DNA from: a virus
DNA: 64,000 nucleotides
Strand: one strand, 5' to 3'
IMG/VR virus record: IMGVR_UViG_3300035130_000101
Coordinates: 1-64,000 of that record
Position numbers and translations under genes: made by a program. Position 1 is the first letter of the stretch. Each line of letters begins with the position of its first letter. Shown here one piece after another: positions 937 to 19,493 of the stretch. The notes beneath the pieces are model-generated. The model worked only from the letters and a program-made list of their open reading frames with translations, did not search any database and was not told the DNA's origin.

Positions 937-942
937 AAAATC

Positions 943-956
943 TCAATTCAAATTAA
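943..956. repeat. junction palindrome, degenerate copy
   Basis: TCAATTCAAATTAA; 6 nt from ATG 936. Confidence 0.4.
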
Positions 957-1033
957 AATAAAAAAGGGCATATCCTCACAGTGAGGATATGCCCAGGTTA
1001 AAGGCCAGTTGTTGTTAGGGCTTTAGTTCTATC

Positions 1034-4413: not shown

Positions 4414-4417
4414 TTGA

Positions 4418-4666: not shown

Positions 4667-4689
4667 TTATCTATATCCATAGTTTTTTC

Positions 4690-4703
4690 TCAATTGCAAT
4701 TAG
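4690..4703. repeat. junction palindrome
   Basis: TCAATTGCAATTAG; overlaps the stop codon at 4700-4702. Confidence 0.6.
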
Positions 4704-5688: not shown

Positions 5689-5695
5689 CTCTCTA

Positions 5696-5893
5696 TTACT
5701 CTATAAAATATATCTGAATAAATGACTGGTGATGTTCATAATAGCCTATCAAGACTAACAGAGCAAACACAAAAAAAATACCGATTAATGTTAACATTAT
5801 CAAGGTATAATAGTCACTGTATAGATCAAATGGCAATGTCCACGACAGAGCGAAATATATCAACAACAGAATACAGAAAATAATCCCTATCAT
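5696..5893 (-). CDS. small transmembrane protein
   Basis: 65 aa with two hydrophobic helices. Confidence 0.4.
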   Translation of the reverse strand: MIGIIFCILLLIYFALSWTLPFDLYSDYYTLIMLTLIGIFFVFALLVLIGYYEHHQSFIQIYFIE

Positions 5894-5895
5894 TC

Positions 5896-6429
5896 TTATT
5901 TACACATCCAAATCGTCCGCCACTTGTCCCGGTCTTCGACTAATGTTTTGCCGATGGACTTAATTGACTGAAAGCCACAACCTCGCAAAAACGTTTCAAA
6001 ATCAACATCATCTTCGATTCTGGTATAGGGGAAGCCGGGACCGTCACCGTCGTATTGAGATTCTATCAAAGCAATCTCAGAATGGTTTCTAATCCAATCC
6101 AGAATATTGGTCGGATTGTCGAGATAGGGCAGAACAGAAAAGCAGATGACGATATCTATATCAAATGGTGGAGGTTCCGTACACAATTCGCCAATGTCTC
6201 CGCCAGTTATCCTGTCTATAAAAATACCATATTCAGCGGCCCTCTTATGCAATAGGAACGTGTTCTTGTCAACTCCTATTGCTTTGGCATTAGCTAATTT
6301 GCACCTAAATAATATATCACCGCCGCCACACCCCAAGTCAAGCACCGTCTTGCCAGCAAAGTCAATGTGCTGGCTGATAATATCCCACTGTGCGGGCGCT
6401 CTGGTATTATGCAATGGCGGCAATTTCAT
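5896..6429 (-). CDS. class I SAM-dependent methyltransferase
   Basis: Motif I VLDLGCGGGD, followed by an acidic loop GVD. Confidence 0.75.
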   Translation of the reverse strand: MKLPPLHNTRAPAQWDIISQHIDFAGKTVLDLGCGGGDILFRCKLANAKAIGVDKNTFLLHKRAAEYGIFIDRITGGDIGELCTEPPPFDIDIVICFSVLPYLDNPTNILDWIRNHSEIALIESQYDGDGPGFPYTRIEDDVDFETFLRGCGFQSIKSIGKTLVEDRDKWRTIWMCK

Positions 6430-6832
6430 CTAATGTTCTCCTGAGCCAATATTCGTCTCCCTCGCGGCGTTTGCTCGGTCGCGGGTCACACTCTAATCGG
6501 CTCTCGCTAAAGTCAATCAGGTAGGGATGATTGTCTCTAATCAGGATATTCGGCCTGGTCAGGTCGCCATGCCTGATACCGGCAATCTCCAGAGCTTTGG
6601 GTATCTTGTCAAAATGGTAAGCTAACAGGTCAATGTCGGTTACAGGTGTCTGTTCGATGTGGTGCAAGCGGATTGTCTCTATGTCTGTCTGCTCGGCATA
6701 TGGTACGTAGCCGGAGGGGTAAAGCGTCCTGAGGCACCATATTTCGTTATCGGTCATAAATTTAGGCTGAGTCTTGTAGACCCAAACGCCGTTACCGACT
6801 ATTCTGGATATACCGTTGTCAGAGATAATCAC
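6407..6832 (-). CDS. small kinase-like protein
   Basis: IRHGDLTRPNILI...YLIDFSES resembles the HxDxxxxN catalytic loop plus a DFG-like motif of LPS/aminoglycoside/protein kinases. Confidence 0.5.
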   Translation of the reverse strand: MIISDNGISRIVGNGVWVYKTQPKFMTDNEIWCLRTLYPSGYVPYAEQTDIETIRLHHIEQTPVTDIDLLAYHFDKIPKALEIAGIRHGDLTRPNILIRDNHPYLIDFSESRLECDPRPSKRREGDEYWLRRTLDEIAAIA

Positions 6833-7158
6833 AGTACTTCAAACCATTTACAATAGGTGATTTTACACATAGATTCCAGTTCCAAAAAAATCATTGCTGA
6901 CGAATCACTACTCCCGGCTACTGGATTATGTACTACCTTATCAATAATCCTCACGATCTCACCAATAACGACAGATCCTTTTGTTCCTTTTTGAATGATA
7001 TTAAATTTTGTCCCAATCTCTAATAGAGGTTGAACAGAATCAACTGGGCCAAAAAAGTGTATCTCTCCGTCTTGACATATCAAGTTGACATCAACCGGCA
7101 AAGGCTCCATATCATCAGTAGTGCAAAGATAATAATTTGTATTTAATTCCCAGGTCAT
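6829..7158 (-). CDS. hypothetical protein
   Basis: 109-aa ORF with overlapping stop/start junctions to its neighbours. Confidence 0.45.
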   Translation of the reverse strand: MTWELNTNYYLCTTDDMEPLPVDVNLICQDGEIHFFGPVDSVQPLLEIGTKFNIIQKGTKGSVVIGEIVRIIDKVVHNPVAGSSDSSAMIFLELESMCKITYCKWFEVL

Positions 7159-7205
7159 AATAAACAGTCCTTTTGCTAATTACGTTCATAGATTTTCTAG
7201 GTTGC

Positions 7206-7658
7206 TCATCGCCATACAGAAACATCTGCGGTTGGGTATATTTCACAGGCTTTTAGGTATCTTCTTACAAATTCTACAAGCCCATCATAATCACCCCAAC
7301 CGTTAGATGGATTGAATTGCTTGAACCGTTCGGGGTCGCCCTCAAGTAATGCTAACCCTTTCCGAAGTGGCTCAATCAATTCGCCAGCCTTACTGATATT
7401 GATTTCATCAGGTCGCCATAAATATTGGTATATACCGGCTTCTGAGGCCATTGTGGTAAGATTATGTGTGATATTTGCGGTATAAACTTCTTTGCTATCA
7501 TCGTCGCCAATTTGGGTTATAGCCGGTTCGCACCCTGGGAATTTTTCATTCCATTCATCACGTGAAATCTCTTTTATTGAACCATTTTCACGGATAAAAA
7601 TACCCGACCCAGTCTCGTTCTTTTTATCAGGAAATATTAAGGAAACATCAAGACTCAT
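7206..7658 (-). CDS. hypothetical protein
   Basis: 150-aa ORF, co-oriented with the island. Confidence 0.5.
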   Translation of the reverse strand: MSLDVSLIFPDKKNETGSGIFIRENGSIKEISRDEWNEKFPGCEPAITQIGDDDSKEVYTANITHNLTTMASEAGIYQYLWRPDEINISKAGELIEPLRKGLALLEGDPERFKQFNPSNGWGDYDGLVEFVRRYLKACEIYPTADVSVWR

Positions 7659-7695
7659 TTTTGTACCTTTCCGCCTACAATAATGACATAGAGTG

Positions 7696-8415
7696 TTAAA
7701 TCTTGTAGATTGAGTTTATATGGTCGGTATAGATTTTGTTATAAGAATAGTCATCAAAGTAGCGGTTAATACCATCTGCCTTTTCAGACAGTTCTTTATG
7801 CGGCTCAAGCTCGTGCGTCTCGACAATGACCAACTTTGGCCGGTAACGGTCAATCGAAAAACCGTCAAGCACGTCTATCTCTGCGCCCTCAACATCGACA
7901 ATCAACACTTCAAAATCTGGCTGCCAGTTATGCTTTTCAAGCAGAAAATCGAGCGTCACCATCTCGCACTCGATAAACTTATCGGCATCAAGGCCGCTGA
8001 ATTTCGACCACTCGATACCGTTGTAGATGGCTACCATCTCCGGCTTGATAGTAGAGTTTGAGCCACCGAGGTAGAGCTTGACAGTATCATTCCTTGAGCC
8101 GATGCAACATTGCTCAAGTATTACCCTATCATTGCCTTGATAAAGTTTCTGGCAGTCTGCTATCATATCCGGCTGAGGTTCAACTAAAAGCCCCTGCCAG
8201 CCGGCCTCGATAAGGCAATGCGAATTGCTCCAATTGTAGCAGTTAAAAGCGCCGATCTCCACCACCCTCCCGTCGGTGATGTAGCCGAAATGTGACAGGT
8301 AGATGTCAACGAGATTAGGGACCTGACAGTTAGGGACGTTGATGTATCTCATCTTTTCGTATTTGGTATAACTGAGGCAATGATGACAACGATAAACCAA
8401 AATAGAGCAAACCAT
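7696..8415 (-). CDS. FkbM-family methyltransferase-like
   Basis: The pattern VVEIGAF...GWQGLLVEPQP...LVIVETHE resembles FkbM-type methyltransferases. The start is uncertain; an internal Met lies 21 codons in. Confidence 0.55.
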   Translation of the reverse strand: MVCSILVYRCHHCLSYTKYEKMRYINVPNCQVPNLVDIYLSHFGYITDGRVVEIGAFNCYNWSNSHCLIEAGWQGLLVEPQPDMIADCQKLYQGNDRVILEQCCIGSRNDTVKLYLGGSNSTIKPEMVAIYNGIEWSKFSGLDADKFIECEMVTLDFLLEKHNWQPDFEVLIVDVEGAEIDVLDGFSIDRYRPKLVIVETHELEPHKELSEKADGINRYFDDYSYNKIYTDHINSIYKI

Positions 8416-8420
8416 ATATA

Positions 8421-8430
8421 TCTCAATTCA
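8421..8430. repeat. junction palindrome half-site
   Basis: TCTCAATTCA; 5 nt from ATG 8415. Confidence 0.3.
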
Positions 8431-8528
8431 CCAGTCACCATCATTCATAAGCCTATCGTGGCAGACAAAAAACTGACGATCATTACAATAGACCAGACAA
8501 AATAAGCATATTTCGATGTCACTTTTTC

Positions 8529-8542
8529 TCAATTCAAATTGA
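8529..8542. repeat. junction palindrome
   Basis: TCAATTCAAATTGA; contains the stop codon of the aminotransferase gene (..FNLN*). Confidence 0.55.
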
Positions 8543-9659
8543 AAAAATCTCTAAACTTTTCAACGATGTAGGATAGGTCATTCAGGTTAAGCCCCTGGTG
8601 GCAGCCAATATATAGCCCGTTTCGATTCACCCAATCTGCCACCGGGTAATCGTCCGGCTCCCACAGCCCCTGGTAACACGGCTGCCGAGTCAGCGGCAGG
8701 GCCAGCCTTGATTCAATGCCGTTCTCTGCCAGGAATCGCCGCAGGTTGTTCCTTGTGCCTTCTTGCCGACAAACGAGCGGGTACATCTGAAAAGCGTGTT
8801 CTGAGTGTGACCGGATAGCCGGCAATTGTAGCCGGTCCTCAAGTGACGCTAAATGCTCTGTCAGATAGGCGGCGTTCTCTTGCCGGTGGCTGATAATTTC
8901 CGGTAGATCGTCCAGTTGCGCCAGACCCAGCGCAGCCTCAAGTTCAGTCATCCTAAAGCTATGGCCCACTCGCTTGAAGTCAAATTTGCGCCCAAGCCAG
9001 GTATGATCGTAATGCTGGCCAGTCGGTAGCTCATTAAGGTCAATTCCGTGGTTGACCAGTGACCGCATATAGAGTGCATATTCGGGATTGTCGGTAATAC
9101 CCAGGCCGCCAACTCCGGTCACAAGGATATGAGCCATATAGGTAGAGAAACAAGAAATGTCACCAAACGAGCCAACTGGATAACCAAAGCGGGTGACAAG
9201 CATCGCCTCGCAGGAATCCTCTATGACCTTGATCTTGCTGCCGTAGATAGCAAACGGGGCAACCGTCCGGCTCAACTCATCTATGGCGCTGGCTTGTCCA
9301 AAGATGTGGACCGGGATAATGCACTTGGTATTCTCGTTGATTGCCGCTTCGATCTTGGTGTAGTCAAGATCATAGTACCGGCTATCCACGTCAACCAGTA
9401 CCGGCTTTAATCGCAAGTGCAAAACGACGTTGACCGTAGCCACAAACGTAATAGCTGGAATGATAACCTCGCTGCCGTCCGGCCAGCCGTGCATCTCCTT
9501 TAGCGTCTGCAAAGCCACCAAGAGCGATGACGTGCCGCTATTGGACAATACTCCATACTGGCAATTGTGCATCTGAGCAAAGCGGGATTCGAACTCTCTC
9601 GACATCTGACCGTAGGACAACCGGCCGGTATCTAAAACCTGATTGACCAATTGTTGCAT
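8529..9659 (-). CDS. DegT/DnrJ/EryC1-type PLP-dependent sugar aminotransferase
   Basis: LSYGQMSREFESRFA...NSGTSSLLVAL... is the typical family pattern. Start taken at the internal ATG 9659, 1 nt after the upstream stop; the track ORF extends to 9749. Confidence 0.8.
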   Translation of the reverse strand: MQQLVNQVLDTGRLSYGQMSREFESRFAQMHNCQYGVLSNSGTSSLLVALQTLKEMHGWPDGSEVIIPAITFVATVNVVLHLRLKPVLVDVDSRYYDLDYTKIEAAINENTKCIIPVHIFGQASAIDELSRTVAPFAIYGSKIKVIEDSCEAMLVTRFGYPVGSFGDISCFSTYMAHILVTGVGGLGITDNPEYALYMRSLVNHGIDLNELPTGQHYDHTWLGRKFDFKRVGHSFRMTELEAALGLAQLDDLPEIISHRQENAAYLTEHLASLEDRLQLPAIRSHSEHAFQMYPLVCRQEGTRNNLRRFLAENGIESRLALPLTRQPCYQGLWEPDDYPVADWVNRNGLYIGCHQGLNLNDLSYIVEKFRDFFNLN

Positions 9660-9660
9660 T

Positions 9661-10485
9661 TTAGGCGTAGCTTGGAATGTCCCAAGTGCTATTTTGTTCA
9701 AGGCTCTTCTCCTGAAAAGCCCAGGTAGAAGGCCGGAACAGGTTGTCACCCGTCATAATAATTTGTTTGCCGGTATATTCTTGCATAACAGACCTGATGT
9801 CATTCAGGTTTTTTATCCTGGTTTCAAGTTCTTCATTATCTGATTTCTCAATACCAAATGAGGCCGATTCATAAGCAAGACCGTTACATTCGATATAGCG
9901 GAACCGTTCAGCAATGAGAAGCCATTCAGCGTCAACGCCTGCGCCGTTTGCTGTTGATTCAGCTACAATTTTTTGAGCCACTGGTCTGGAAAGCCCACGA
10001 GAGCCTGATAGTATATCTACATTGTAGCCAAAAAGACGATTGCACTCCAACTCGGTAATTCTTTGCAATTCGGGGTGGGTATTAAATGCCTGTTCGGTTC
10101 GGCCAAAAACAACGAAATCGTATAGAGGAATGTGATTTACTACACTTCGCAATTCATCGGGATAATTGATTATCCAGTAAAGCACTCTGTCAAAATCGCA
10201 ATAATGAAAATGATCGGCTTGAGTTTGCAATCCGAAATTGATACTCATTCTTCGAGCCTGAGCCAAGCCACCCATAGCTTGGACTTTGGCAGCCTCACCT
10301 AGTAAGTCAATTACCTTACCGTCTGTAGTATCCGTCACGACAACAACTATGCTGTCATATATTCGCTGCAATTCAGGCAGATATAATGAGATAGCGTCGA
10401 TGAGCTTTCCATCAGAATCGTGAAGGGCTGATAAAAGAGTGGTCACAATAAAGCCCTTTTTACTACTTCTTTTGTCTGTCCTCAT
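9661..10485 (-). CDS. hypothetical protein
   Basis: 274-aa ORF within the sugar island; no motif recognised. Confidence 0.55.
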   Translation of the reverse strand: MRTDKRSSKKGFIVTTLLSALHDSDGKLIDAISLYLPELQRIYDSIVVVVTDTTDGKVIDLLGEAAKVQAMGGLAQARRMSINFGLQTQADHFHYCDFDRVLYWIINYPDELRSVVNHIPLYDFVVFGRTEQAFNTHPELQRITELECNRLFGYNVDILSGSRGLSRPVAQKIVAESTANGAGVDAEWLLIAERFRYIECNGLAYESASFGIEKSDNEELETRIKNLNDIRSVMQEYTGKQIIMTGDNLFRPSTWAFQEKSLEQNSTWDIPSYA

Positions 10486-10673
10486 TTATTACATCGATAT
10501 AGATAGTGATAGTTTATGTAGTTGAATTTAGTATTTTTGATTTCTTCTTTAGAGGGAACGTCTGAAACCCAATCGTCAATCTCTTGCCAATTGTGCCTAC
10601 ACTTTTTCACGAATAGAGATCTTATCTTGTTCATAGCGCCCCAATGTATCTGAGTAGCACAATTACGACCCAA
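10482..10673 (-). CDS. hypothetical small protein
   Basis: 63-aa ORF; overlaps 10631..10819, so one of the two may be spurious. Confidence 0.3.
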   Translation of the reverse strand: MGRNCATQIHWGAMNKIRSLFVKKCRHNWQEIDDWVSDVPSKEEIKNTKFNYINYHYLYRCNK

Positions 10674-10819
10674 ATAAAAAATGCTGTAAGTCCCAGGCCG
10701 ATTATCAGGGATATTACTCCACCGACAATTGAGGCTATTTTTATCCGCCTGAAATCTCTATCGAAATCATCTGACATTTTTTGAAACCGTTTATCAAAGT
10801 CACTCATAATCCAAACCAA
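10631..10819 (-). CDS. small transmembrane protein
   Basis: 62 aa with a C-terminal hydrophobic helix (IASIVGGVISLIIGLGLTAFFIWVVIVLL). Confidence 0.4.
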   Translation of the reverse strand: MVWIMSDFDKRFQKMSDDFDRDFRRIKIASIVGGVISLIIGLGLTAFFIWVVIVLLRYIGAL

Positions 10820-11531
10820 ACCTTTCCTTCAATTCCTGTCTGTCTGTCATCTTCAGTCCCGGTATCCCGCTCCGGTCGTGATAGTTCCATTGCCCCCGTT
10901 GGATGACGTTGACGTGCCGCAGCGGAGCCTGCCGGGTGCCGAGTACCAACCAATCGGGGTGGTTGTTTACCCTGCCAGCCATCTCTATCTGTTGGGCCGT
11001 TTCACCGGGGACAAGCACCTCTCTCAGTAAGTCTCGCCGCCACATTCCACCCCAGAGTGACATATGGTACTGGCTATTCGGGTCGCTCTTAATCAGGTCG
11101 AGATAGCCCAGAGTATCATAGGTATTGTAGCCCCAATAGAACTGATTGTAGCCTTCTGGTGGCGTGCCTGAGTAAAGCCGCTCATCAGCCAGGTCGAACT
11201 TGAGAACGTTGGTATACTGGTGCATATAGTCGTAGATCATCTGGACGGCTTTGGTGTCAACGGGACGGGAAAGAAAATAATCATCGAGCATAAGGATAAA
11301 GACTTCATCGGCTACGGTGTCCAGTACCTTTATGAGTGCATCGCTCCATTTGTTGGCCGGGTAATTTTTGAATTTGCCGATAGAGTAGAAATTGGAATCA
11401 CACTCAATTCTGGTATAGCCGCAAGTCAGGCGAGTATGCTCAAGTCCGTTAAAATATTTGGTCCACTGATACCAAAAGGGGGGAATAGTCCACTGCTGAT
11501 TGTCGCTGGTCATTACAATTACTTGTATCAT
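10800..11531 (-). CDS. hypothetical protein (possibly glycosyltransferase-like)
   Basis: 243 aa. MIQVIVMTSDN...FILMLDDYF is weakly GT-A-like. The guess rests on context only. Confidence 0.5.
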   Translation of the reverse strand: MIQVIVMTSDNQQWTIPPFWYQWTKYFNGLEHTRLTCGYTRIECDSNFYSIGKFKNYPANKWSDALIKVLDTVADEVFILMLDDYFLSRPVDTKAVQMIYDYMHQYTNVLKFDLADERLYSGTPPEGYNQFYWGYNTYDTLGYLDLIKSDPNSQYHMSLWGGMWRRDLLREVLVPGETAQQIEMAGRVNNHPDWLVLGTRQAPLRHVNVIQRGQWNYHDRSGIPGLKMTDRQELKERFGLDYE

Positions 11532-11594
11532 CGGTTCCTCTACAAAAAATATCCGGGTCTCTGTATGCCGGATGGGATTAAATGTTGTTATCGG

Positions 11595-12494
11595 TTACGT
11601 TCCTTTGTTTCCTCTATACCATTCTATCGTTTGCCTTAACCCATCTATCAGCGACGTTTCCGGCTGCCACCCTAACAGTGACTTAGCTCGGCTATTATCA
11701 TATAGCCGTCTTTTCTCACCAGTAGGCTTTGTCTTATCCCAGGCGACGGTGCCATCGAAACCGGTCAACTCAACCAATAAATCAACCAACTCAGCAATCG
11801 ACACCTCTTGATTAGACGAGATATTGACCGGCTGACCCACGTCGGTATCAATGAATTTGGACAGGGCCTTTGCCACGTCACCAGCATACAGAAAATCTCT
11901 AGTAGCCTTGCCGTCGCCCCAAATGGTAACAACCTCTTTGGCCTCGATAAACTTACGTACCAAGGCAGCTATGACGTGGCCGCTTTCTCCAAAGTTGTCT
12001 CTTGGACCATACATATTAACCGGAATAGGATACTCAAAAGCCATCCCGTACTGCTCGCGGCAGGCTTCCAGTTGCGCCAGGGCCACCCGCTTACTAATGC
12101 CATATGAACCATTAGACTTTTCAGGATAGCCACTCCACAGGTTGCCCTCTTTCATCGGCAATAGCGGAAAGTCAGGATAAGCGCAAACCGAGGAGACAAA
12201 CACGAACTTCCCGACGCCAATCTCAGCACACTTCTGGATAAGCTGAGTATTCATCATCACATTGTCATAATAGATGCTGGCCGGGTTTGCCATATTGTAG
12301 GAAATGCCGCCGACGTTGGCCGCTAGGTGGTAGACGATATCGGGCTTGACAAAATGATCGAAAAGGGCATCAATATGATCATGTTGCCGCAGGTCATAGG
12401 CGCGGGATAGAACGGGGTAAACGTCGTGGTCACTTAAGAGGGGGTAGAGATGGCTGCCAAGAAAGCCAGCGGAGCCGGTCAGGAGTATCTTCAT
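11595..12494 (-). CDS. NAD-dependent sugar epimerase/reductase (SDR, GDP-fucose-synthase-like)
   Basis: Rossmann motif LLTGSAGFLGSHL and catalytic YGISK (YxxxK). Start taken at ATG 12494, with a GAGGA RBS and an ATGA overlap with the upstream stop. Confidence 0.8.
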   Translation of the reverse strand: MKILLTGSAGFLGSHLYPLLSDHDVYPVLSRAYDLRQHDHIDALFDHFVKPDIVYHLAANVGGISYNMANPASIYYDNVMMNTQLIQKCAEIGVGKFVFVSSVCAYPDFPLLPMKEGNLWSGYPEKSNGSYGISKRVALAQLEACREQYGMAFEYPIPVNMYGPRDNFGESGHVIAALVRKFIEAKEVVTIWGDGKATRDFLYAGDVAKALSKFIDTDVGQPVNISSNQEVSIAELVDLLVELTGFDGTVAWDKTKPTGEKRRLYDNSRAKSLLGWQPETSLIDGLRQTIEWYRGNKGT

Positions 12495-12673
12495 TGCCGT
12501 TTCCTCATTGCCAGCCATACCTCATCGGCCGTCGGCTTGCGCACTTTTTCCGCCGCCAAGTAGGTTTGCAGAATCCAGACGATATGCGCCGTCTTGCTAC
12601 GCTGTGCTTTTTGGGCGCTGGCGGTTAGTTGGGTATTGAGTTTATCGGGTAAGCGTAGGGTGAAGCGGGTCAT
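12491..12673 (-). CDS. ribbon-helix-helix (CopG/Arc-like) protein
   Basis: MTRFTLRLPDKLNTQLTASAQKAQRSKTAHIVWILQTYL shows the beta-alpha-alpha pattern. Confidence 0.65.
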   Translation of the reverse strand: MTRFTLRLPDKLNTQLTASAQKAQRSKTAHIVWILQTYLAAEKVRKPTADEVWLAMRKRQ

Positions 12674-12699: not shown

Positions 12700-12999
12700 C
12701 TAGCCGTAGCCGTAGCCGTCGCCGGAGCCGTAGCCGTAGCCGTCGCCGGAGCCGTAGCCGTCGCCGGAGCCGTAGCCGTCGCCGTAGCCGTCGCCGTCGC
12801 CGGAGCCGTAGCCGTCGCCGTAGCCGTCGCCGTAGCCGTAGCCGTAGCCGTCGCCGGAGCCGGAGCCGTAGCCGTCGCCGGAGCCGGAGCCGTAGCCGTC
12901 GCCGGAGCCGGAGCCGTCGCCGGAGCCGTAGCCGTCGCCGTAGCCGTCGCCGGAGCCGGAGCCGTAGCCGTCGCCGTAGCTAATCAATGCGCTGTCCAC
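12700..12999 (-). CDS. Gly-Tyr-Ser-Asp repeat protein (low complexity)
   Basis: 99 aa made almost entirely of GDGYGS-type repeats. Its start overlaps the stop of 12984..13274. The mirror plus-strand frame encodes RS repeats. Confidence 0.55.
   Translation of the reverse strand: MDSALISYGDGYGSGSGDGYGDGYGSGDGSGSGDGYGSGSGDGYGSGSGDGYGYGYGDGYGDGYGSGDGDGYGDGYGSGDGYGSGDGYGYGSGDGYGYG
12703..12975. repeat. imperfect tandem repeats (GCCGTAGCCGTCGCCGGA-type, 6/18-bp units)
   Basis: Visible run of GCCGTA/GCCGTC/GCCGGA hexamers encoding GYGDGS repeats on the minus strand. Confidence 0.85.
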
Positions 13000-13487: not shown

Positions 13488-14144
13488 TCACAGGTGGTTA
13501 CGTGTGTCAACACATCTCATATACCTGGCAATTGTGCCGGACTTGAGACCGGTTAGCTCGCGCACTACTGCCGGTCCGTCATCCTCTAATCGGTGAACAA
13601 TGCCAGACTGATAGATCGTCATCGCTGTTACCGGCTTAGTGATTTCCTGTTCCCTAGCCACCCTTTTGATATGGTTAGTCAGCGTAGACACGGACGTATG
13701 TCCACCTCTGGACACTGACTTTTTAACAATATCTCCCGGTCTGGTCAAGTTATGATAAGCCTCTCTGGCTAAAATCTGATAAAGTAATGGTAAGCCAGTT
13801 ATAACCGCCTTTACCTGCCCCCGGCTTATAGTCTCTACCAGTTTTGTTTTGTGCAGAGTTGATACCATCCGAACTTCGACGGGCTTTCCAATGTCATCAA
13901 AAAACATACTAATCGCCCGCTTCGCTTGGTTGGTAGTAGATCGGGAGTATTCGCCGGGCCGGACCATCCAGGCCAAATACTCGTCAATATGCCATTGCTC
14001 AAGCTCGGATAATTTGATCGGAGCGTGAAATTTGGCAAGCTCGATTATCCAGCGGGAATAGAGCCGGACGGTATTTTTGGACAGGCCCGCAAAGGCGCTG
14101 TCTAATTTTTGTTGTAACTCATTTGATGGTTTCATATTTGACAT
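13488..14144 (-). CDS. short tyrosine-recombinase-like protein (SAM-like N-domain; catalytic signature incomplete)
   Basis: 218 aa. The N-terminus (TVRLYSRWIIELAKFH...IDEYLAWM...YSRSTTNQAKRAISMFFD) looks like an integrase core-binding domain. LTRPGDI (box I Arg) and ARY (Tyr) can be placed, but HxxR and the Lys hairpin cannot be found by eye. Confidence 0.6.
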   Translation of the reverse strand: MSNMKPSNELQQKLDSAFAGLSKNTVRLYSRWIIELAKFHAPIKLSELEQWHIDEYLAWMVRPGEYSRSTTNQAKRAISMFFDDIGKPVEVRMVSTLHKTKLVETISRGQVKAVITGLPLLYQILAREAYHNLTRPGDIVKKSVSRGGHTSVSTLTNHIKRVAREQEITKPVTAMTIYQSGIVHRLEDDGPAVVRELTGLKSGTIARYMRCVDTRNHL

Positions 14145-14165
14145 TATAGCACGTTTTGGTATAAT
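14138..14165 (+). promoter_or_regulatory. sigma70-type promoter directed into the cassette array (Pc-like)
   Basis: TTGACA (14138-14143), 16-nt spacer, TGG-TATAAT (14160-14165). The -35 overlaps the recombinase-like start codon. Confidence 0.65.
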
Positions 14166-14193
14166 ATCAAGTAAGATATAGTGTTATGATATT

Positions 14194-14202
14194 GTTAGAT
14201 TG
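14194..14202 (+). repeat. attI-like core box GTTAGATTG
   Basis: Matches GTTRRRY and lies 2 nt before ATG 14205. Its complement (8/9) opens the first repeat at 14404. Confidence 0.5.
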
Positions 14203-14204
14203 CT

Positions 14205-14411
14205 ATGGTTTATCTTGGTTACGTTTACGATGAAATGTCATACTGCCCGGAGTTGGTTGGTGTGTTTGCCACCAAACCTGCCGCTTACCGTGCAGTTAGA
14301 AAACGGATCAAAGAGATGATTATAGAGCATTGGGAGTGTTGGGCGGGAGGACGATACCGCCACGATTACCATTTTACGTGGCGTATTAAACCCGTTGAAC
14401 CAGCAACCTAA
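14205..14411 (+). CDS. cassette ORF 1 (68 aa, unknown)
   Basis: ORF track. The stop TAA lies inside box CAACCTAAC. Confidence 0.6.
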   Translation: MVYLGYVYDEMSYCPELVGVFATKPAAYRAVRKRIKEMIIEHWECWAGGRYRHDYHFTWRIKPVEPAT

Positions 14412-14491
14412 CAACGGCTTACAGCGGACGGATTGACCTGGCCGTTTACATCGACCGCCCTGGCCGCCGCTGAAGCCGGGGCGTTATACGG
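14404..14491 (+). repeat. attC-like site 1 (88 bp)
   Basis: R'' CAACCTAAC, R' GTTATACGG. Arms 14415-14431 and 14464-14478 pair 15/15, with bulged A14421 and A14428. Confidence 0.7.
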
Positions 14492-14521
14492 CACGTTGCC
14501 AACAGAGTCCGGAGTAATTGT

Positions 14522-14896
14522 ATGTGGTACAAAAAATACCCTAAATTAAATTCAGCACTATTCACGTATGAGAATAGTGGCAAGCGGAGCAACGACCCGC
14601 CCCCGTATTCGTTAGTTGAGCGTGGTGGCGAACTGATAGACATTGAAGATAAATATTCGGTGTCGGGCTACAAAATTTTAGGCTACACGGAAAGCCCGCC
14701 GTTCCCGGCAGAAGGGTATCCAGCCGTAGCTGTCCTTTTTGAAAATCAATCGTTTGAAAAAATTTGGTGGCACTATCCCTGTAATGAGCCGTATAACAAT
14801 CAAAATGCAGGGGACGCCCCAAGCTCGATTTTACAGCCGCCTAATCTTGTGGCTCCAAGTCGGAGTAGGCGGCGAACTAATAAAACGCGCCCCTGA
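14522..14896 (+). CDS. cassette ORF 2 (124 aa, unknown)
   Basis: GGAG RBS. The last ~36 codons run into attC-like site 2. Confidence 0.55.
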   Translation: MWYKKYPKLNSALFTYENSGKRSNDPPPYSLVERGGELIDIEDKYSVSGYKILGYTESPPFPAEGYPAVAVLFENQSFEKIWWHYPCNEPYNNQNAGDAPSSILQPPNLVAPSRSRRRTNKTRP

Positions 14897-14914
14897 TTTT
14901 GGGGCGTTAGGCGG
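14789..14914 (+). repeat. attC-like site 2 (126 bp)
   Basis: R'' CCGTATAAC is the exact complement of 14483-14491; R' GTTAGGCGG. Arms 14801-14817 and 14887-14901 pair 15/15, with bulged G14807 and A14814. Confidence 0.7.
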
Positions 14915-14941
14915 ATTGCCGCTAGAAAAGGAGTTGATCTT

Positions 14942-15229
14942 ATGAATGATGTAGATAGGCGACTGATGCAAGACAAACAAGACCAGCTTTTGGCCGTGGC
15001 GAAAAAAGCGATGGTTCAACAGAAAGAAATCAACGAATTGCATCAGGCATTAACGCGAATCGCATCGTACGATACCCCCGACGAGATACGCCAAGACGCG
15101 GCTGATGAATATGGCCTAGATTACGAAGAAGCCTTGGAAATGGCCTATGAAAACATTATCCAGGAGGCCAAATCAATGCTTGGCAAATATCCCCCTAACA
15201 AGCCGGTGGAGCCGACCGGACAATCTTAA
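14942..15229 (+). CDS. cassette ORF 3 (95 aa, acidic, unknown)
   Basis: AAGGAG RBS. The C-terminal ..YPPNKPVEPTGQS is encoded by the left arm of attC-like site 3. Confidence 0.6.
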   Translation: MNDVDRRLMQDKQDQLLAVAKKAMVQQKEINELHQALTRIASYDTPDEIRQDAADEYGLDYEEALEMAYENIIQEAKSMLGKYPPNKPVEPTGQS

Positions 15230-15278
15230 TTTTCAAGACCAGGCCCAGGCCGGCGGCTCACCGGCGGGCGTTAGGCGG
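15191..15278 (+). repeat. attC-like site 3 (88 bp)
   Basis: R'' CCCCCTAAC, R' GTTAGGCGG. Arms 15202-15219 and 15250-15265 pair 16/16, with bulged G15208/9 and A15215. Confidence 0.7.
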
Positions 15279-15303
15279 CTTCGCTGCGAAAGGAACAATC
15301 GAA

Positions 15304-15723
15304 ATGGGTACGTATTGGGATGGGAATGGAAAGTATCAAGAATGGTCAGACAAACTCGAAGATCAAGTCCCTATGTCTGGCCGGGCTGAAAAATTGCACA
15401 TTGATCTAGTGCGTAATATCAGCAATTGTTATTATGACCACTTCAACAATGGTAACTGCAATTGGGGGAACAAAAGCGAACAATTTGCACACATCGAATA
15501 CCACGCCGATGCACTTCACGAAGCAGCACTGGCCGAAGGCATTGAAAATATCCGTAGTTTACTGTCGTCTATTCGTTCCCCGTTGGACGCTGATTTTGCA
15601 AAAAATTTGTTTTACTGCGGCGAAGATGCAGAGGACTTGGAAGAAAATTGGGAAAAGCTGGCAGATATTATTATCGGTTGGGCGTGGAAGGTTGAGCAGT
15701 CTTTACCAGTACCAGCCGCCTAA
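15304..15723 (+). CDS. cassette ORF 4 (139 aa, unknown)
   Basis: AAAGGA RBS. The stop TAA lies inside box CCGCCTAAC. Confidence 0.6.
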   Translation: MGTYWDGNGKYQEWSDKLEDQVPMSGRAEKLHIDLVRNISNCYYDHFNNGNCNWGNKSEQFAHIEYHADALHEAALAEGIENIRSLLSSIRSPLDADFAKNLFYCGEDAEDLEENWEKLADIIIGWAWKVEQSLPVPAA

Positions 15724-15844
15724 CAAAAAATTGTACCCGAATTGCTACTGTTCGTTTCAACAACGGCCACACGCTGGCAATCTCGGTTTAAATTGCGGCT
15801 CTTAACGCCAAGCCGCAATCGGGTAAATTTAGGGCGTTAGCTGG
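15716..15844 (+). repeat. attC-like site 4 (129 bp)
   Basis: R'' CCGCCTAAC, R' GTTAGCTGG. Arms 15728-15745 and 15815-15830 pair 16/16, with bulged G15733 and A15740/1. An inner hairpin lies at 15792-15819. Confidence 0.7.
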
Positions 15845-15870
15845 CTCATTGCCAGTGGAGGCGAGTGGAA

Positions 15871-16059
15871 ATGCTAGAATGTCCTGATTGCAAAATTCCG
15901 TTTGAGGTGGTAAGAATACATCGCCGCCACCAGACTGCTTTTAAAAATATGAATGCCGCTGTGAAATGGTGTCCGTTTTGTGGTCGCCAGCTAACAAAGC
16001 AATTCAAGCGGACTGAGCAACCGTCACAGTCCGATCAATCATTAGAGTCTGCCGCTTAA
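15871..16059 (+). CDS. cassette ORF 5 (zinc-ribbon-like, 62 aa)
   Basis: CPDCK...CPFCG. ATG 15871 with a GGAGG RBS; the track starts at GTG 15865. Confidence 0.55.
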   Translation: MLECPDCKIPFEVVRIHRRHQTAFKNMNAAVKWCPFCGRQLTKQFKRTEQPSQSDQSLESAA

Positions 16060-16075
16060 TTGCGGCGTTAGGCGG
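15987..16075 (+). repeat. attC-like site 5 (89 bp)
   Basis: R'' CCAGCTAAC is the exact complement of 15836-15844; R' GTTAGGCGG. Arms 15999-16013 and 16051-16063 pair 13/13, with bulged C16005 and A16012. Confidence 0.7.
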
Positions 16076-16080
16076 ATAAA

Positions 16081-16293
16081 ATGATAGAAAACTACATTTG
16101 TATCGAACAACGGAAACGGATTGGTAGTATCGTTTACGACGATGTCATACTCGAACTAGAACGATTTGCAGATAGGATAGAAATAGAGATGTCGAACAGT
16201 GACGATCACAATGTACATATTAGGATAAATATTGAGCAGGCAAAAAAGTTAGCTGAGTTCATAGGCGGTTTTGTTGGTATGGTATCCGCTTGA
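16081..16293 (+). CDS. cassette ORF 6 (70 aa, unknown)
   Basis: The ATG is 5 nt after box GTTAGGCGG, which can serve as the SD. Confidence 0.55.
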   Translation: MIENYICIEQRKRIGSIVYDDVILELERFADRIEIEMSNSDDHNVHIRINIEQAKKLAEFIGGFVGMVSA

Positions 16294-16359
16294 CTTTACG
16301 CCGCAGGGTCGTTCACCCGCCACGGCCCTGGCAGCGGCACAACGGCGGGTGTTAGGCGG
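16286..16359 (+). repeat. attC-like site 6 (74 bp, degenerate)
   Basis: R'' CCGCTTGAC (7/9), R' GTTAGGCGG. GC-rich imperfect hairpins lie between them, with no clean two-bulge pattern. Confidence 0.4.
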
Positions 16360-16364
16360 ACAAA

Positions 16365-16580
16365 GTGGCAAAAATATATGGTGTGACAAAAATACATTTT
16401 CTGGCAGAGCCATTAGTGATAATTGGCGAGAAAAAGATGACGTTGGAAATGGCAGAACGTTGGCTTGCCAGAGAACACGGTGAAAATGCAGAAGTAGACG
16501 CAATCAATTGCACATCAATATATGATGACCGTGATTATTATATTTTGGGGATTGTAGAAAATAGCAACCAATCCGCCTAA
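16365..16580 (+). CDS. cassette ORF 7 (71 aa, unknown)
   Basis: GTG start 5 nt after GTTAGGCGG. The stop TAA lies inside CCGCCTAAC. Confidence 0.5.
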   Translation: MAKIYGVTKIHFLAEPLVIIGEKKMTLEMAERWLAREHGENAEVDAINCTSIYDDRDYYILGIVENSNQSA

Positions 16581-16701
16581 CAAATCGTTCGTAGCGAATT
16601 GCTAACCTTGTTTTTTATTGTGGTCGGTTGGGGCCACTACCGCACATTAACCCGCAGGCATTGTGCCAACCCGCAATCGCCACAACTCAAGCGTTAGGTG
16701 C
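16573..16701 (+). repeat. attC-like site 7 (129 bp, paralog of site 4)
   Basis: R'' CCGCCTAAC, R' GTTAGGTGC. Arms 16587-16602 and 16673-16686 pair 13/14, with bulged C16590 and A16597. Confidence 0.65.
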
Positions 16702-16705
16702 TTGT

Positions 16706-16993
16706 ATGAAAAATCCACGGTGGTTAATGGTAACAAGAAAAATCACAGATGGTTTAGTGCTGGTTTGGTCGCCGGAATGCAATGAGCAATTATGGGCGTT
16801 AGGTAACAGGCCAGGATATAAACATCACAATTGCGCTATCTGTAATAGAGAAATTCCAAAAAATACAGAAAAAATGTACAGACCTGTGGGAAATCCACGC
16901 AATAGAATGTGCAGAATTTGCCAAGACTGCGCTTTGATGAACCACCCACCTAACAAACATTTGCAGCCCGACCCCGACAGCCGCCGCAAATGA
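16706..16993 (+). CDS. cassette ORF 8 (Cys-rich zinc-finger-like, 95 aa)
   Basis: ATG 4 nt after GTTAGGTGC. HHNCAICN...CRICQDC. The C-terminal ..HPPNKHLQPDPDSRRK is encoded by the attC-like arm. Confidence 0.55.
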   Translation: MKNPRWLMVTRKITDGLVLVWSPECNEQLWALGNRPGYKHHNCAICNREIPKNTEKMYRPVGNPRNRMCRICQDCALMNHPPNKHLQPDPDSRRK

Positions 16994-17068
16994 GACGGCT
17001 GCGGGCGTGGGCACATCGGTATCAAGCGAGCCGCCGCAGGCGGGCGGCTGAAATGTGGCGTTATATGG
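16946..17068 (+). repeat. attC-like site 8 (123 bp)
   Basis: R'' CCACCTAAC, R' GTTATATGG. Arms 16957-16968 and 17046-17056 pair 11/11, with bulged G16963; pairing is irregular beyond that. Confidence 0.6.
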
Positions 17069-17080
17069 CTAGGAGGAAAA

Positions 17081-17329
17081 ATGATCTACGACGGACTGCT
17101 GGTTTACGGTGACAATTTCAATCCAGGTGCCGTTTGTCCGCATTACCTGCCAGAGAGCCAATACACTTTTACGTGGTATCGCAACGAGGACGGTATCCCG
17201 GTTTTGAGCGGTTACGATCCTAAAGATGATTTGGCTACAGATTGGCTTTGTGTGTGCGGCCACTATGAAACTGGAGGCTGCTGCTGTAGGCACTGTGGCG
17301 CTGAACCGCCGTGGGGCTGTATGTGCTAA
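17081..17329 (+). CDS. cassette ORF 9 (Cys-rich, 82 aa)
   Basis: AGGAGG RBS; CVCGHYETGGCCCRHCGAEPPWGCMC. Confidence 0.6.
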   Translation: MIYDGLLVYGDNFNPGAVCPHYLPESQYTFTWYRNEDGIPVLSGYDPKDDLATDWLCVCGHYETGGCCCRHCGAEPPWGCMC

Positions 17330-17332
17330 CAG

Positions 17333-17442
17333 CCATATAACAAACATTTGCAGCCGACCGCCCAGGCTGCGGATAACGAAGATCAAGCGCAATCATAGTC
17401 ACATTTCACCGTGGGCGGCGGCTGAAATGTGGCGTTACTTCT
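17333..17442 (+). repeat. attC-like site 9 (110 bp, paralog of site 8)
   Basis: R'' CCATATAAC is the exact complement of 17060-17068; R' GTTACTTCT. Arms 17344-17364 and 17412-17430 pair 19/19, with bulged G17350 and A17357. Confidence 0.7.
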
Positions 17443-17443
17443 T

Positions 17444-17689
17444 ATGCAAAACAAGCAAAAATATTCAGCGCGTCAAATTATACCACCTCAGTTAACAGAT
17501 ACCGATAAAGAGCGATTTATCACAAATAGCAAGGCTCATATGTTGTTCGACCTGGCTATAAAACTGGCTGACAAAGGCGACGAACTTACAATTGAGGTAA
17601 AATTTGAGGAATATAAAACCAAACACTATGACACACCCTGGCTGAATGAAAGCCGGGTTGATATGGTTGCGTGGGTAACAACCCCGTAA
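17444..17689 (+). CDS. cassette ORF 10 (81 aa, unknown)
   Basis: ATG 17444; the track starts at GTG 17429, inside site 9. Confidence 0.5.
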   Translation: MQNKQKYSARQIIPPQLTDTDKERFITNSKAHMLFDLAIKLADKGDELTIEVKFEEYKTKHYDTPWLNESRVDMVAWVTTP

Positions 17690-17738
17690 CCTAACAAATC
17701 ATTCAAGCGGAATTGCTGATCTTGGTTTTTATTGCGTC
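17682..17738 (+). repeat. attC-like site 10, left half only (truncated)
   Basis: ..GTAACCTAACAAATCATTCAAGCGGAATTGC.. matches the left arms of sites 5 and 7. No right arm or GTTRRRY box follows. Confidence 0.45.
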
Positions 17739-17746: not shown

Positions 17747-17775
17747 TTGCTAAATAACAGTATTGGAGGTATAAT
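17747..17775 (+). promoter_or_regulatory. sigma70-type promoter
   Basis: TTGCTA, 17-nt spacer, TATAAT. Confidence 0.55.
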
Positions 17776-17780: not shown

Positions 17781-17860
17781 TGTTCAGGATAGCATAACTC
17801 AATGGGCGCATTTTTTATTTAACGTGGCCCCCATCGGCTAAAAGAGTGCTATCCTGAACA
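17781..17860 (+). promoter_or_regulatory. structured 5' leader (14-bp perfect inverted repeat)
   Basis: TGTTCAGGATAGCA (17781-17794) pairs with TGCTATCCTGAACA (17847-17860). It starts at about the predicted TSS, upstream of 17905..18300. Confidence 0.4.
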
Positions 17861-17904: not shown

Positions 17905-18300
17905 ATGATATACTTTAGATCAAGAAAATATAAGTCTACCTTTAATTGTTCCTTTATGGCAAAAGATGGCCAAAACATTGATGATTTGTCAAGGTGTCAG
18001 ATAGGCGATTCAGTATCAATTATATTCGACATTCCGCAGAAAATTGCAGACATGGTAAGTGAGAGTGGGCTATCTGATAGTGCTGGAATACGCATTTACA
18101 AAGATAATAATACTTATTCAGTTCATATTCCATTCAAGATAATCGAGCGTGATCATTCGTTCTCTTGGAATGATATCGGCACTTTACAAACCCTAGGAAC
18201 ATCAATTTACGTTGAGGCAAAAAGCGGATACTGGGAAGATATGTTCAAATGGATATGCCTGAATGAAAGACCAATATGGGCAGTGGAAGATGAACAATGA
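17905..18300 (+). CDS. hypothetical protein
   Basis: AAGGGAGG RBS before ATG 17905. ATGA overlap with the endonuclease gene. Confidence 0.55.
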   Translation: MIYFRSRKYKSTFNCSFMAKDGQNIDDLSRCQIGDSVSIIFDIPQKIADMVSESGLSDSAGIRIYKDNNTYSVHIPFKIIERDHSFSWNDIGTLQTLGTSIYVEAKSGYWEDMFKWICLNERPIWAVEDEQ

Positions 18301-19493
18301 AACGTATCTTCACTATCGAACAGGACAAAGAAGTTGCCGAGCTATACCAGCAGGGAATGTCATCTATCAAGCTCGCCGAGCAATATGGCGTTGACAAGTC
18401 AACGGTCTTGGGGGCGTTGAAACGGCAAGGGATAAGGCGGAGAACTAATAGAGCCTTTACCAGAGGTGAAGAGCAACAGATAGCTCACATATATCAAGCT
18501 GGACACAAGATAACGGACATTGCAAAAGCGTATGGCTATGATTTCACTACTATTAAAAATGCCCTCAAGAGACAAGGAGTTAAGCAAGGGGATGACCGGT
18601 TTACTTTTTCGGCCACACAAGAAAAGGAGATACTTGAAGAGTACAAATCTGGAAACAAGATGGCCGATATTGCAAAAAAATATCAGGCATCCCCAGGAAC
18701 AATATCTAAAGCGATAACCAATCAGGGTGGCAAGGTCAGAGACGGACGCATCTTTACTGATAGCGAAGAAGTAATGATAGGCCACATTTACGAATCCGGC
18801 TTTAGCCCTCAGCAAATTTCAGTGGCGTATGGCGTATCACGTAGCGCAATTATAAATACAATAGATAGACGTGGGATTGATAAGCGCCCTAACAGAAAAA
18901 ACTTTTTTGACGAAAAGGCTTTTGATAGTCTTGACAGTGAAGCCCCCCTATATTGGCTTGGCTTTTGTTATGCCGATGCCAATGTAACTAACTATGAACT
19001 CAGGATTGGACTTGCTATCAAGGATATAGATCACTTGCAGTTACTGGGAGATTTTATGCAAAGTGATAAGACGGTAAAAAAATATCGAAATAATACAGCT
19101 TGTCAATTGAGCTTTGCTAGCGTGTATCTTACAAAAAGGTTGCACTCATTAGGATTGATAGCAGGTAGAGGTGAATTTGAAAAGCTCGTGCCGCATATTC
19201 CCGATAATCTGGCTCATCATTTTATTCGCGGATATCTTGACGGTGACGGCTGCATTACTGAAAGTAATTATCTTATCAGATTTCTAGGGCAAGTTGATAT
19301 ACTGGAATGGATTAGAAATATCCTTCATAGTAATGCAGGTGCTAGCAATTCCGTTTCTATTAAAAAACGGAGGGGCATCTACAGTATTGGATGGGGAGGC
19401 CGATATCAAGGTCCTAAAATAATAGACTATCTTTATAAAAATGCGACTATATATCTCGATAGAAAAAGAAAAGTAGCAAGAAGTTGGAAATAA
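18297..19493 (+). CDS. LAGLIDADG homing endonuclease with four N-terminal HTH repeats
   Basis: Motifs LYWLGFCYADANV and HFIRGYLDGDGCI. There are four ~49-aa repeats (F(T)..E...Y..G....IA..YG....TI..AL.RQG). Confidence 0.8.
   Translation: MKRIFTIEQDKEVAELYQQGMSSIKLAEQYGVDKSTVLGALKRQGIRRRTNRAFTRGEEQQIAHIYQAGHKITDIAKAYGYDFTTIKNALKRQGVKQGDDRFTFSATQEKEILEEYKSGNKMADIAKKYQASPGTISKAITNQGGKVRDGRIFTDSEEVMIGHIYESGFSPQQISVAYGVSRSAIINTIDRRGIDKRPNRKNFFDEKAFDSLDSEAPLYWLGFCYADANVTNYELRIGLAIKDIDHLQLLGDFMQSDKTVKKYRNNTACQLSFASVYLTKRLHSLGLIAGRGEFEKLVPHIPDNLAHHFIRGYLDGDGCITESNYLIRFLGQVDILEWIRNILHSNAGASNSVSIKKRRGIYSIGWGGRYQGPKIIDYLYKNATIYLDRKRKVARSWK

Follow-up and report, generated by a model that had tools for sequence, protein, structure and literature searches.

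The viral contig IMGVR_UViG_3300035130_000101 of the IMG/VR collection, of which positions 1 to 64,000 were analyzed here (the window; all positions below refer to it unless a related contig is named), carries at positions 13,488 to 17,738 an array of ten small gene cassettes that are joined by attC-type recombination sites and headed by a short gene, here called mini-IntI, that is derived from an integron integrase (IntI) gene. As judged from its sequence, this platform consists of a fixed part (the short IntI gene, two divergent promoters and an attI-like site) and a variable array of mostly single-open reading frame (ORF) cassettes. We think it likely that it is the integron-type platform of a siphovirus-like phage lineage, whose hosts are probably Chloroflexota and whose cassettes are recombined by the host IntI acting in trans. 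A preliminary description of this DNA had proposed a functional or recently functional integron-type cassette platform on a phage, and this proposal is supported by the anatomy of the attC sites, by cassette exchange at the G|TT crossover point and by the phage genes among which the platform lies.

The cassette array and its attC sites

The recombinase-like gene, the outward promoter, the box in front of the first cassette and the ten ORFs (all small and co-oriented, 14205-17689) were found where the preliminary description had placed them. The parts of the element are as follows (Pc, cassette promoter; aa, amino acids; J1 to J9, the nine complete junctions).

13488-14144, minus strand: mini-IntI, short IntI-derived gene, 218 aa (ORF and PF13495 match)
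14138-14165, plus strand: Pc-like outward promoter TTGACA-16-TATAAT with TG extension (promoter scan 12/12)
14143-14170, minus strand: divergent promoter-like site TTGATA-16-TATAAT with TG, facing the mini-IntI gene (scan 11/12)
14166-14202, plus strand: attI-like region, AT-rich, TGTTAT-N6-TTGTTAG, ending in the crossover box G|TTAGATTG
14194-14202: attI-like box GTTAGATTG, two bases ahead of the ATG at 14205
14195-14483, plus strand: cassette 1, ORF 14205-14411 (68 aa), attC J1 14404-14491
14484-14906, plus strand: cassette 2, ORF 14522-14896, attC J2 14789-14914
14907-15270, plus strand: cassette 3, ORF 14942-15229 (95 aa), attC J3 15191-15278
15271-15836, plus strand: cassette 4, ORF 15304-15723 (139 aa), attC J4 15716-15844
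15837-16067, plus strand: cassette 5, ORF 15865-16059 (zinc ribbon, weakly Lar-like), attC J5 15987-16075
16068-16351, plus strand: cassette 6, ORF 16081-16293 (70 aa), degenerate attC J6 16286-16359
16352-16693, plus strand: cassette 7, ORF 16365-16580 (71 aa), attC J7 16573-16701
16694-17060, plus strand: cassette 8, ORF 16706-16993 (95 aa), attC J8 16946-17068
17061-17434, plus strand: cassette 9, ORF 17081-17329 (82 aa, Cys-rich), attC J9 17333-17442
17435-17738, plus strand: cassette 10, ORF 17444-17689 (or GTG start 17429), truncated attC from 17687, 5' half only

The junctions J1 to J9 are 88, 126, 88, 129, 89, 74, 129, 123 and 110 nucleotides (nt) long. They had been described as inverted repeats of 74-129 nt bounded by RYYYAAC-type and GTTRRRY-type boxes, and YAAC and GTTR boxes are present at eight of the nine complete sites; the exception, J6, has the degenerate R'' box GCTTGAC and is the weakest site of the array. 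The statement that the box is mostly CCGCCTAAC does not stand, since that sequence is exact only at J4 and J7 and GTTAGGCGG is found at four of the nine junctions. The stop codon of the cassette 1 ORF lies inside R'', and most other cassettes likewise end on a TAA within their R'' box. The ORFs of cassettes 2 (14522-14896) and 8 (16706-16993) continue past R'' into their own attC; homologs of the cassette 2 protein are only about 90 aa long.

When J1 to J9 are folded as single-stranded DNA, R'' pairs with R', the AA spacer lies opposite an unpaired GGC or GCG, and the stems carry two 1-nt bulges, both on the R''-L'' (5') arm and 6 bp apart, the distal one being at every site an A in the top strand (a T in the bottom strand). 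These junctions are thus imperfect R''-L''...L'-R' palindromes with an unpaired spacer and extrahelical bases, the anatomy by which attC sites are recognized. Folding of the junctions, which the preliminary description had suggested as a check, was better than that of shuffled sequences at seven of the nine sites (z-scores of -3.8 to -1.7; for example, J1 -3.45, J3 -3.79, J8 -1.74 and J9 -3.67), J6 and J7 being the other two (below). An alignment of the arms of 21 sites (those of the window, of related phage contigs and of one bacterial integron) has stem pairing in 84.9% of its cells, compared to 29-42% when the partners are slid by 1-3 columns, and 122 compensatory cells, compared to 20-40 in the slid controls; both sides are altered in 14 of the 18 stem pairs, so the sequence varies while the pairing is kept.

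A two-arm scan based on structure, run over all 64 kb, found seven sites, all between 14.4 and 17.4 kb, where about 0.2 is found per shuffled window. Covariance models were built from all sites (R1) and from the attC sites of arrays in bacterial metagenome-assembled genomes (MAGs) only (R2). The three best matches of the host-only R2 model in the window are J5 (the best), J1 and J3, on the correct strand and with E values (rough) of 0.002-0.025, and the best match of R1 is J3. Scans of the window with Rfam at gathering thresholds and for tRNAs gave no matches, and there is no matching Rfam family. The motif GCGTTAGGCGG, with 2 mismatches allowed, occurs 20 times against 16 expected, which is not above chance alone; the attC signal resides in the clustering and structure of the sites and not in the motif by itself. 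Plain intrinsic terminators were considered as an explanation of the junctions and rejected, as a T-run is present at one junction alone, and there on the wrong strand. Nine complete sites in 3.1 kb, next to a gene that is not an IntI by definition (below), make a CALIN in the terms of IntegronFinder (a cluster of attC sites that lacks an integron integrase, with two or more attC within 4 kb and no IntI).

The 5' half of the tenth site (17687 to ~17738) is 80% identical to the start of J7, after which it diverges, with no L' or R'; by its sequence this truncated site marks the end of the array. Just 3' of it lies an ORF of 398 aa (18297-19493, plus strand) with several helix-turn-helix repeats and a LAGLIDADG-like C-terminus (FIRGYLDGDGCI), which looks like a homing endonuclease gene, and since it follows the truncated attC closely, insertion of that gene may have cut the end of the array.

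Cassette turnover at G|TT

Five related contigs (L001, L006, L065, L066 and L075) carry the same kind of platform; the relatives are viral contigs from IMG/VR, 54-83 kb in length. In L001 (IMGVR_UViG_3300022682_000042, 82.5 kb) the mini-IntI protein is 76% identical to that of the window, and the four cassettes are entirely different. L006 (IMGVR_UViG_3300042731_008413, 83 kb) has a short protein that is 35% identical and four cassettes, L075 has six cassettes, and L065 and L066 have at least one each. The gene, the promoter and the attI are kept in all five contigs and the cassettes differ. A comparison of relatives for cassette change at G|TT had been suggested in the preliminary description, and it gave this result, the same platform with other cassettes, together with two cassettes that recur in other arrays at different positions. 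The protein of window cassette 2 is 88% identical to that of L006 cassette 4, while the short proteins of these two platforms are 35% identical; the nucleotide homology of the two cassettes begins right after G|TTATACGG and stops at GGCG|TTAGG, and it includes a compensatory change in the attC loop stem. L001 cassette 1 and L075 cassette 4 are 65% identical, with short proteins that are 40% identical. Cassettes that are better conserved than the platforms that carry them argue for horizontal exchange of cassettes. J4 also resembles the attC of L006 cassette 1.

In integrons, the six bases after the R' G belong to the downstream cassette, and they therefore pair with that cassette's own R''. 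Among the 26 cassettes of the six phage arrays, the upstream TTRRRY fits the cassette's own downstream R'' at 138 of 156 positions, compared to 88.3 ± 5.4 in shuffled pairings (maximum 114 in 100,000 shuffles), and the match is a perfect nine-mer in 18 of the 26. In the window alone, the next-junction matches are 47 of 54, versus 34 of 54 for same-junction matches. The rare non-consensus boxes, TTATACGG, TTAGCTGG, TTATATGGCT and TTAGGTG, obey the rule as well: the upstream TTATACGG of cassette 2 is the reverse complement of its own R'' (9/9), the non-consensus TTAGCTGG of cassette 5 is the reverse complement of its own R'' CCAGCTAAC (9/9), and the upstream TTAGGTG of cassette 8 matches its own R'' CACCTAAC at 8/9. 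The upstream GTTATATGGCT of cassette 9 is the reverse complement of its own R'' AGCCATATAAC (11/11), and the values for cassettes 4 and 6 are 9/9 and 7/9. The attI-like box likewise complements the R'' of the first cassette, with 8/9 positions in the window and 9/9 or 10/10 in L006, L065 and L075. On this comparative evidence the cassettes are mobile units exchanged at G|TT, and the arrays record the insertion, loss and reordering of cassettes, with crossovers precisely at that point.

Some attC cassettes lie away from a platform. L008, which is part of the same 83-kb contig as L006, has a two-site cluster at 2966-3520, L004 has a lone attC near capsid genes (1286-1410), and L007 (696-1060) has a hybrid attC with arms that do not pair, plus one truncated attC. 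Such solitary or paired attC cassettes are the outcome expected of insertion at secondary sites, and IntI-catalysed insertion outside att sites is reported in a preprint (bioRxiv 10.1101/2022.09.11.507474).

The cargo of the arrays would be accessory and counter-defence genes. The first cassette of L006 encodes a Mom-family protein (E 1.3e-11) and that of L066 an orphan N6/N4 DNA methylase (N6_N4_Mtase, E 1e-16). Searches of the window's cassette proteins against Pfam and PHROG gave no convincing function except a weak Lar-like match of the cassette 5 zinc ribbon (PHROG 6422, E 1.4e-4). Homologs of cassette 2 (51-59% identity) occur in tight phage operons without attC at L067 4137-4469 and L068 471-746; by these matches the cassette 2 family is a phage-typical one, which bears on cassette creation, and its homologs being ordinary phage genes suggests the phage gene pool as the source of cassette genes.

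The short IntI-derived protein and its promoter region

By sequence, profile and fold, the nearest relative of the 218-aa protein is the integron integrase. VchIntIA (2a3v) is its sole sequence match in the PDB and the best fold match (E ~1e-7) of its AlphaFold2 model (pLDDT, the model's confidence score, 87), and the best NCBIfam model is TIGR02249, integron integrase, with 46 bits against a cutoff of 265. It matches PF13495 (Phage_int_SAM_4) with an E of 9.5e-14 and has no match to the catalytic domain PF00589 at E ≤ 0.1. As had been noted in the preliminary description, this recombinase is smaller than IntI: alignments to IntI1, to an Anaerolineae IntI and to 2a3v show an intact N-terminal domain and the absence of about 90-100 residues (IntI residues ~135-225), which in IntI include the first catalytic arginine (R-I), the lysine hairpin and the IntI-specific insert; the last we take to be the part that reads the extrahelical attC bases in the 2a3v structure. 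What corresponds to the HxxR box is M-T-I-Y-Q, with the box II arginine replaced by tyrosine, and the GH histidine is a leucine; Tyr208 is kept. Among ten members of the family, the tyrosine is present in nine and the box II arginine in six, the H-II position is M, S or another residue, and no other catalytic residue recurs. An alternative placement of the C-terminal tail on the IntI tail motif, given by MAFFT, was dropped for the hhalign/HMMER placement on the HxxR...GH...Y helices.

The protein thus lacks most of the R-K-H-R-H/W-Y set of a catalytic tyrosine recombinase, and it lacks both PF00589 and the C-terminal insert by which an IntI is defined. The preliminary description had called the element an integron by its layout, and an attI-like site, a Pc-like promoter, attC sites and co-oriented cassettes are indeed all present; because its gene fails the definition of IntI, under the IntegronFinder definitions (PMC4889954) the element is a CALIN with a platform and not a complete integron. 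A search of the window's larger ORFs for another recombinase found none.

The mini-IntI gene is under purifying selection and is not decaying. The ratio of nonsynonymous to synonymous substitution (dN/dS) against the L001 homolog is 0.12, with 0.13 in the N-terminal half and 0.09 in the C-terminal half. A profile search of 1.84 billion representatives returned a small, discrete family of about 17 clusters of 183-236 aa, separated by a gap in score from full-length recombinases, and the short form is conserved down to 33% identity. Scans with the short-IntI alignment found one 1.6-kb contig only in metagenomes and an already-known contig only among viruses, and no family member is present in any of 56 bacterial stretches that contain related attC sites (below).

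The ~70-nt promoter/attI region is conserved across platforms whose proteins are just 33-41% identical, and the Pc-like promoter has the same position and sequence in L001, L006, L065, L066 and L075. By sequence, then, a putative attI adjoins the intI-derived gene, ends in a G|TT crossover point and is read into the cassettes by a candidate Pc. Two near-consensus promoters stand back to back at 14138-14170, with the -35 of each abutting the -10 of the other, an overlap that suggests mutually exclusive polymerase binding. The minus-strand site would drive the mini-IntI gene, and since its -10 covers the first ATG of that gene, it would give a near-leaderless start at M4 (14135), which is probably the true start. 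The sequence features described above suggest that the short protein is a non-catalytic DNA-binding derivative that acts at the attI/promoter region, and its conserved N-terminal domain and its position over two divergent promoters point to a regulator or to a structural partner of the host IntI. SPbeta YopR and phi3T SroF (PDB 8bj6 and 9rd5), which we take to be catalytically inactive regulators of phages that bind DNA with a tyrosine-recombinase fold, appear in the fold list with weak scores (E 0.1-0.2); they are full-length folds and unlinked to attC arrays, and their likeness to the short protein is one of functional analogy only.

Hosts, mechanism and alternative explanations

A pattern made from the commonest attC type, GCGAATTGCTA-N45-75-CCGCAATCGC, was searched in a species-representative genome collection and found 56 stretches, compared to an estimated ~8 expected by chance. 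Most of the matches are in Chloroflexota MAGs (Anaerolineae, Caldilineaceae, Promineifilaceae and Ardenticatenales), with arrays of 2-4 sites at many of the loci. In L039 and L051 a full-length IntI adjoins the array; these two are 53% and 52% identical over ~320 aa to the IntI1 sequence used as the query. L039 (Anaerolineae MAG HKST-UBA12) follows the same cross-junction rule as the phage arrays. For J7, the identity is 84% over 129 nt with an attC of a Caldilineaceae MAG (L025), and 77% with an attC that lies beside the full-length intI in L051. The presence of the same attC family beside full-length intI in Anaerolineae and Caldilineaceae points to the host, and on these sequence matches the hosts are most likely Chloroflexota (Anaerolineae or Caldilineaceae), a phylum in which integrons are on record (PMC4889954). 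TerL gave only distant partial matches to INPHARED phages (27-32% identity), so neither a cultured relative nor a host emerges by that route.

Short contigs (L009, L010, L031, L034, L057 and others) of Calditrichota, Planctomycetota, Bacteroidetes, Desulfobacteraceae and Micrarchaeota MAGs carry the same attC type as well; these could be binning errors, mobile cassettes or a sign of a wider host range. Between the full-length intI and attI of L039 (3912-4095 of that locus) there are three CGAAC-N4-GTTCG palindromes, and the phage platforms have none. GAAC-N4-GTTC is presumably a LexA box type, and the palindromes hint at SOS control of the host integrase.

The chromosomal element of L039, a sedentary chromosomal integron (SCI) of Chloroflexota, is like the phage element in its attC family, its cassette rules and its intI divergent from attI and cassettes. 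It differs in that its IntI is 320 aa long and retains all motifs, and in that its attI region spans ~190 nt and includes the three GAAC-N4-GTTC boxes; in the phage element, by contrast, a deletion has removed the catalytic region from a protein of ~200 aa, and the overlapping consensus promoters lie in a region of ~60 nt. The mechanism that we propose is as follows: During infection, a time of abundant single-stranded DNA, the host integron integrase would recombine the folded single-stranded attC sites of the phage in trans, and the phage would in this way draw on and reshuffle a cassette pool; the Pc-like promoter would express the array, and the short protein would regulate the divergent promoters or, as a structural partner, recruit the host IntI to the attI of the phage. 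Of these steps, the part played by the short protein is the least certain. A precedent exists in the finding that IntI1 recombined five phage attCs in trans, and action of bacterial IntI in trans has been proposed (PMC9892861). More tentatively, it is possible, though we would stop somewhat short of calling it probable, that Chloroflexota phages keep a platform of their own in which the non-catalytic ~200-aa protein works with or steers the host IntI, giving the phage an on-demand pool of counter-defence cassettes. Were that so, it would be the mirror image of the bacterial chromosomal integrons that serve as anti-phage defence banks.

Several observations weigh against a host-serviced platform as set out above. 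J6 (z +0.08) and J7 (z -0.17) fold no better than shuffled sequences. The R1 and R2 covariance models detect just the three ~88-nt sites, the 110-129-nt sites being missed because variable loops of 60-70 nt are too costly for such models, and the custom two-arm scan took their place. Eight of the ten window cassettes are without any annotation, so the label "counter-defence" rests on the cargo of the relatives. The hosts were assigned by the likeness of the attC sites to those of MAG contigs, and the bins of some of these contigs belong to other phyla. Retention of Tyr208 and, in six of ten family members, of the box II arginine makes residual catalysis by the short protein conceivable, and an integrase might lie elsewhere on the phage genome, outside the ~64 kb seen.

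The retained residues bear on the possibility that the short protein is itself a minimal recombinase that cuts at G|TT and makes the element a self-sufficient compact phage integron. In each of the six platforms its gene lies next to the array and diverges from it, selection acts on its C-terminal half as well, the tyrosine equivalent is nearly universal in the family, and its fold is closest to VchIntIA. We nonetheless consider this quite unlikely, as R-I and the beta-hairpin lysine fall within the deletion, the HxxR and GH histidines are not conserved, the box II arginine is a tyrosine in the window protein, and the IntI-specific insert and any PF00589 match are absent. That the element is a frozen relic, a fragment of a host integron captured once in which intI decayed and the junctions are now mere hairpins or terminators, is unlikely too. 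Capture of SCI fragments by temperate Vibrio phages is documented (PMC9892861), J6 is degenerate, the tenth site is truncated, and cassette 2 has homologs that are ordinary members of tight phage operons and lack attC, all of which such a relic could accommodate. Its short gene, however, would not be expected to be under purifying selection and conserved down to 33% identity, nor its cassette content to be wholly different in L001 at 76% identity of the platform protein, nor cassettes to be common to platforms whose proteins are 35-40% identical; the cross-junction complementarity is still nearly perfect, and the compact attI/promoter region of the phages is unlike the LexA-box-rich attI region of the host.

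Shuffling of the cassettes by homologous recombination between similar attC repeats, in place of site-specific exchange, would find its substrates in the long near-identical stretches among the attCs (the J7 type occurs in the window, L001, L006, L008 and L004), and the L007 hybrid attC with its mismatched arms could be one of its products. The homology of the shared cassettes stops at G|TT, however, and the cassette downstream takes the six bases that follow the G along with it, rare boxes included; crossovers spread along a repeat would not give such G|TT-linked boxes, which weakens this explanation, and many neighbouring attCs are too dissimilar in sequence for homologous exchange. We regard it as very unlikely. 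It is most improbable that the array is not phage-borne and is instead a bacterial integron or CALIN beside a prophage, or the product of a chimeric assembly. In their gene content the leftmost 12.5 kb of the window look bacterial (glycosyltransferases, an aminotransferase, an epimerase), and an exact 40-mer from this left arm is absent from IMG/VR. Against this, the platforms of the relatives in IMG/VR are flanked by phage genes, and that of L001 has them on both sides (Laminin_G_3 tail-like genes upstream; tape measure, distal tail protein (Dit) and Gp37 downstream), the relatives are viral contigs, L006 too has sugar-modifying genes beside its platform (a glycosyltransferase and an O-methyltransferase-like gene), the GC content of the window is even throughout, its left genes are co-oriented with the phage genes, and no member of the short-IntI family was found in the 56 bacterial stretches. 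The window itself encodes TerL, a tape measure protein, Sipho_Gp37, helicases, a replisome organiser, a DnaC-like loader and HNH proteins, that is, the terminase, tail and replication modules of a tailed phage.

The host-serviced phage platform that we prefer has partial counterparts in the literature. The preliminary description had called a phage-borne arrangement of this kind undescribed, which is too strong, as Qi, Rajabal, Ghaly, Tetu and Gillings (2023, PMC9892861) reported three complete integrons and one In0 in temperate phages as well as 17 CALINs in phages. Those CALINs resemble the present element in having attC-flanked co-oriented cassettes in a phage, no functional IntI, and an orphan DNA methyltransferase among their cargo; they mostly have 2-3 attCs and no platform, whereas here there are ten cassettes and a lineage-wide platform with turnover. 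The complete phage integrons of that study are captured pieces of Vibrio SCIs or class 1 mosaics in P1, or lie in an inactive prophage. Our literature search found no report of a phage platform with a short IntI-derived gene, Pc, attI and a long array that is shared by a lineage, nor of phage arrays this long with comparative proof of turnover, nor of a link to Chloroflexota.

Arbiol et al. (2010) are said to have described, in T4-type phages, mobile promoter-stem-loop (PeSL) cassettes whose shuffling was attributed to homologous recombination at promoter/terminator repeats. They too are small phage accessory genes that lie between repeated stem-loops and are shuffled among relatives; the present element differs from them in its attC-type sites with crossovers at G|TT. 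Integrons are seen as bacterial devices, and their carriage by phages has so far meant mainly small CALINs or accidental captures. What is distinct here is a long array with signs of turnover, a platform common to divergent phages, and a selected IntI-derived family without an intact active site. If the host IntI services the phage array, these phages plug into the cassette economy of their hosts, and cassettes would travel between cells in virions. The element offers a tractable system for the contribution of non-cleaving IntI subunits or binding domains and for the place of integrons in the phage-host arms race, and its attC type gives a sequence-based host link for uncultured Chloroflexota phages.

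Three further features of the window lie around the platform. A ~12-kb sugar-modifying block (1-12518), co-oriented with the phage genes, encodes a 1033-aa multi-glycosyltransferase with HHH_5, a DegT-type aminotransferase, an FkbM methyltransferase, a nucleoside triphosphate (NTP) transferase and an epimerase. Between this block and mini-IntI, a 99-aa ORF (12700-12999, minus strand) consists almost entirely of GDGYGSGSG-type repeats, and L002, a second assembly of the same phage, breaks nearby. On the other side, in the gap that separates the array from the next ORF, a promoter-like site (17747-17775, 10/12) precedes a perfect inverted repeat whose 14-bp arms, at 17781-17794 and 17847-17860, enclose a loop of 52 nt; this structure could be a small RNA or a regulatory hairpin.

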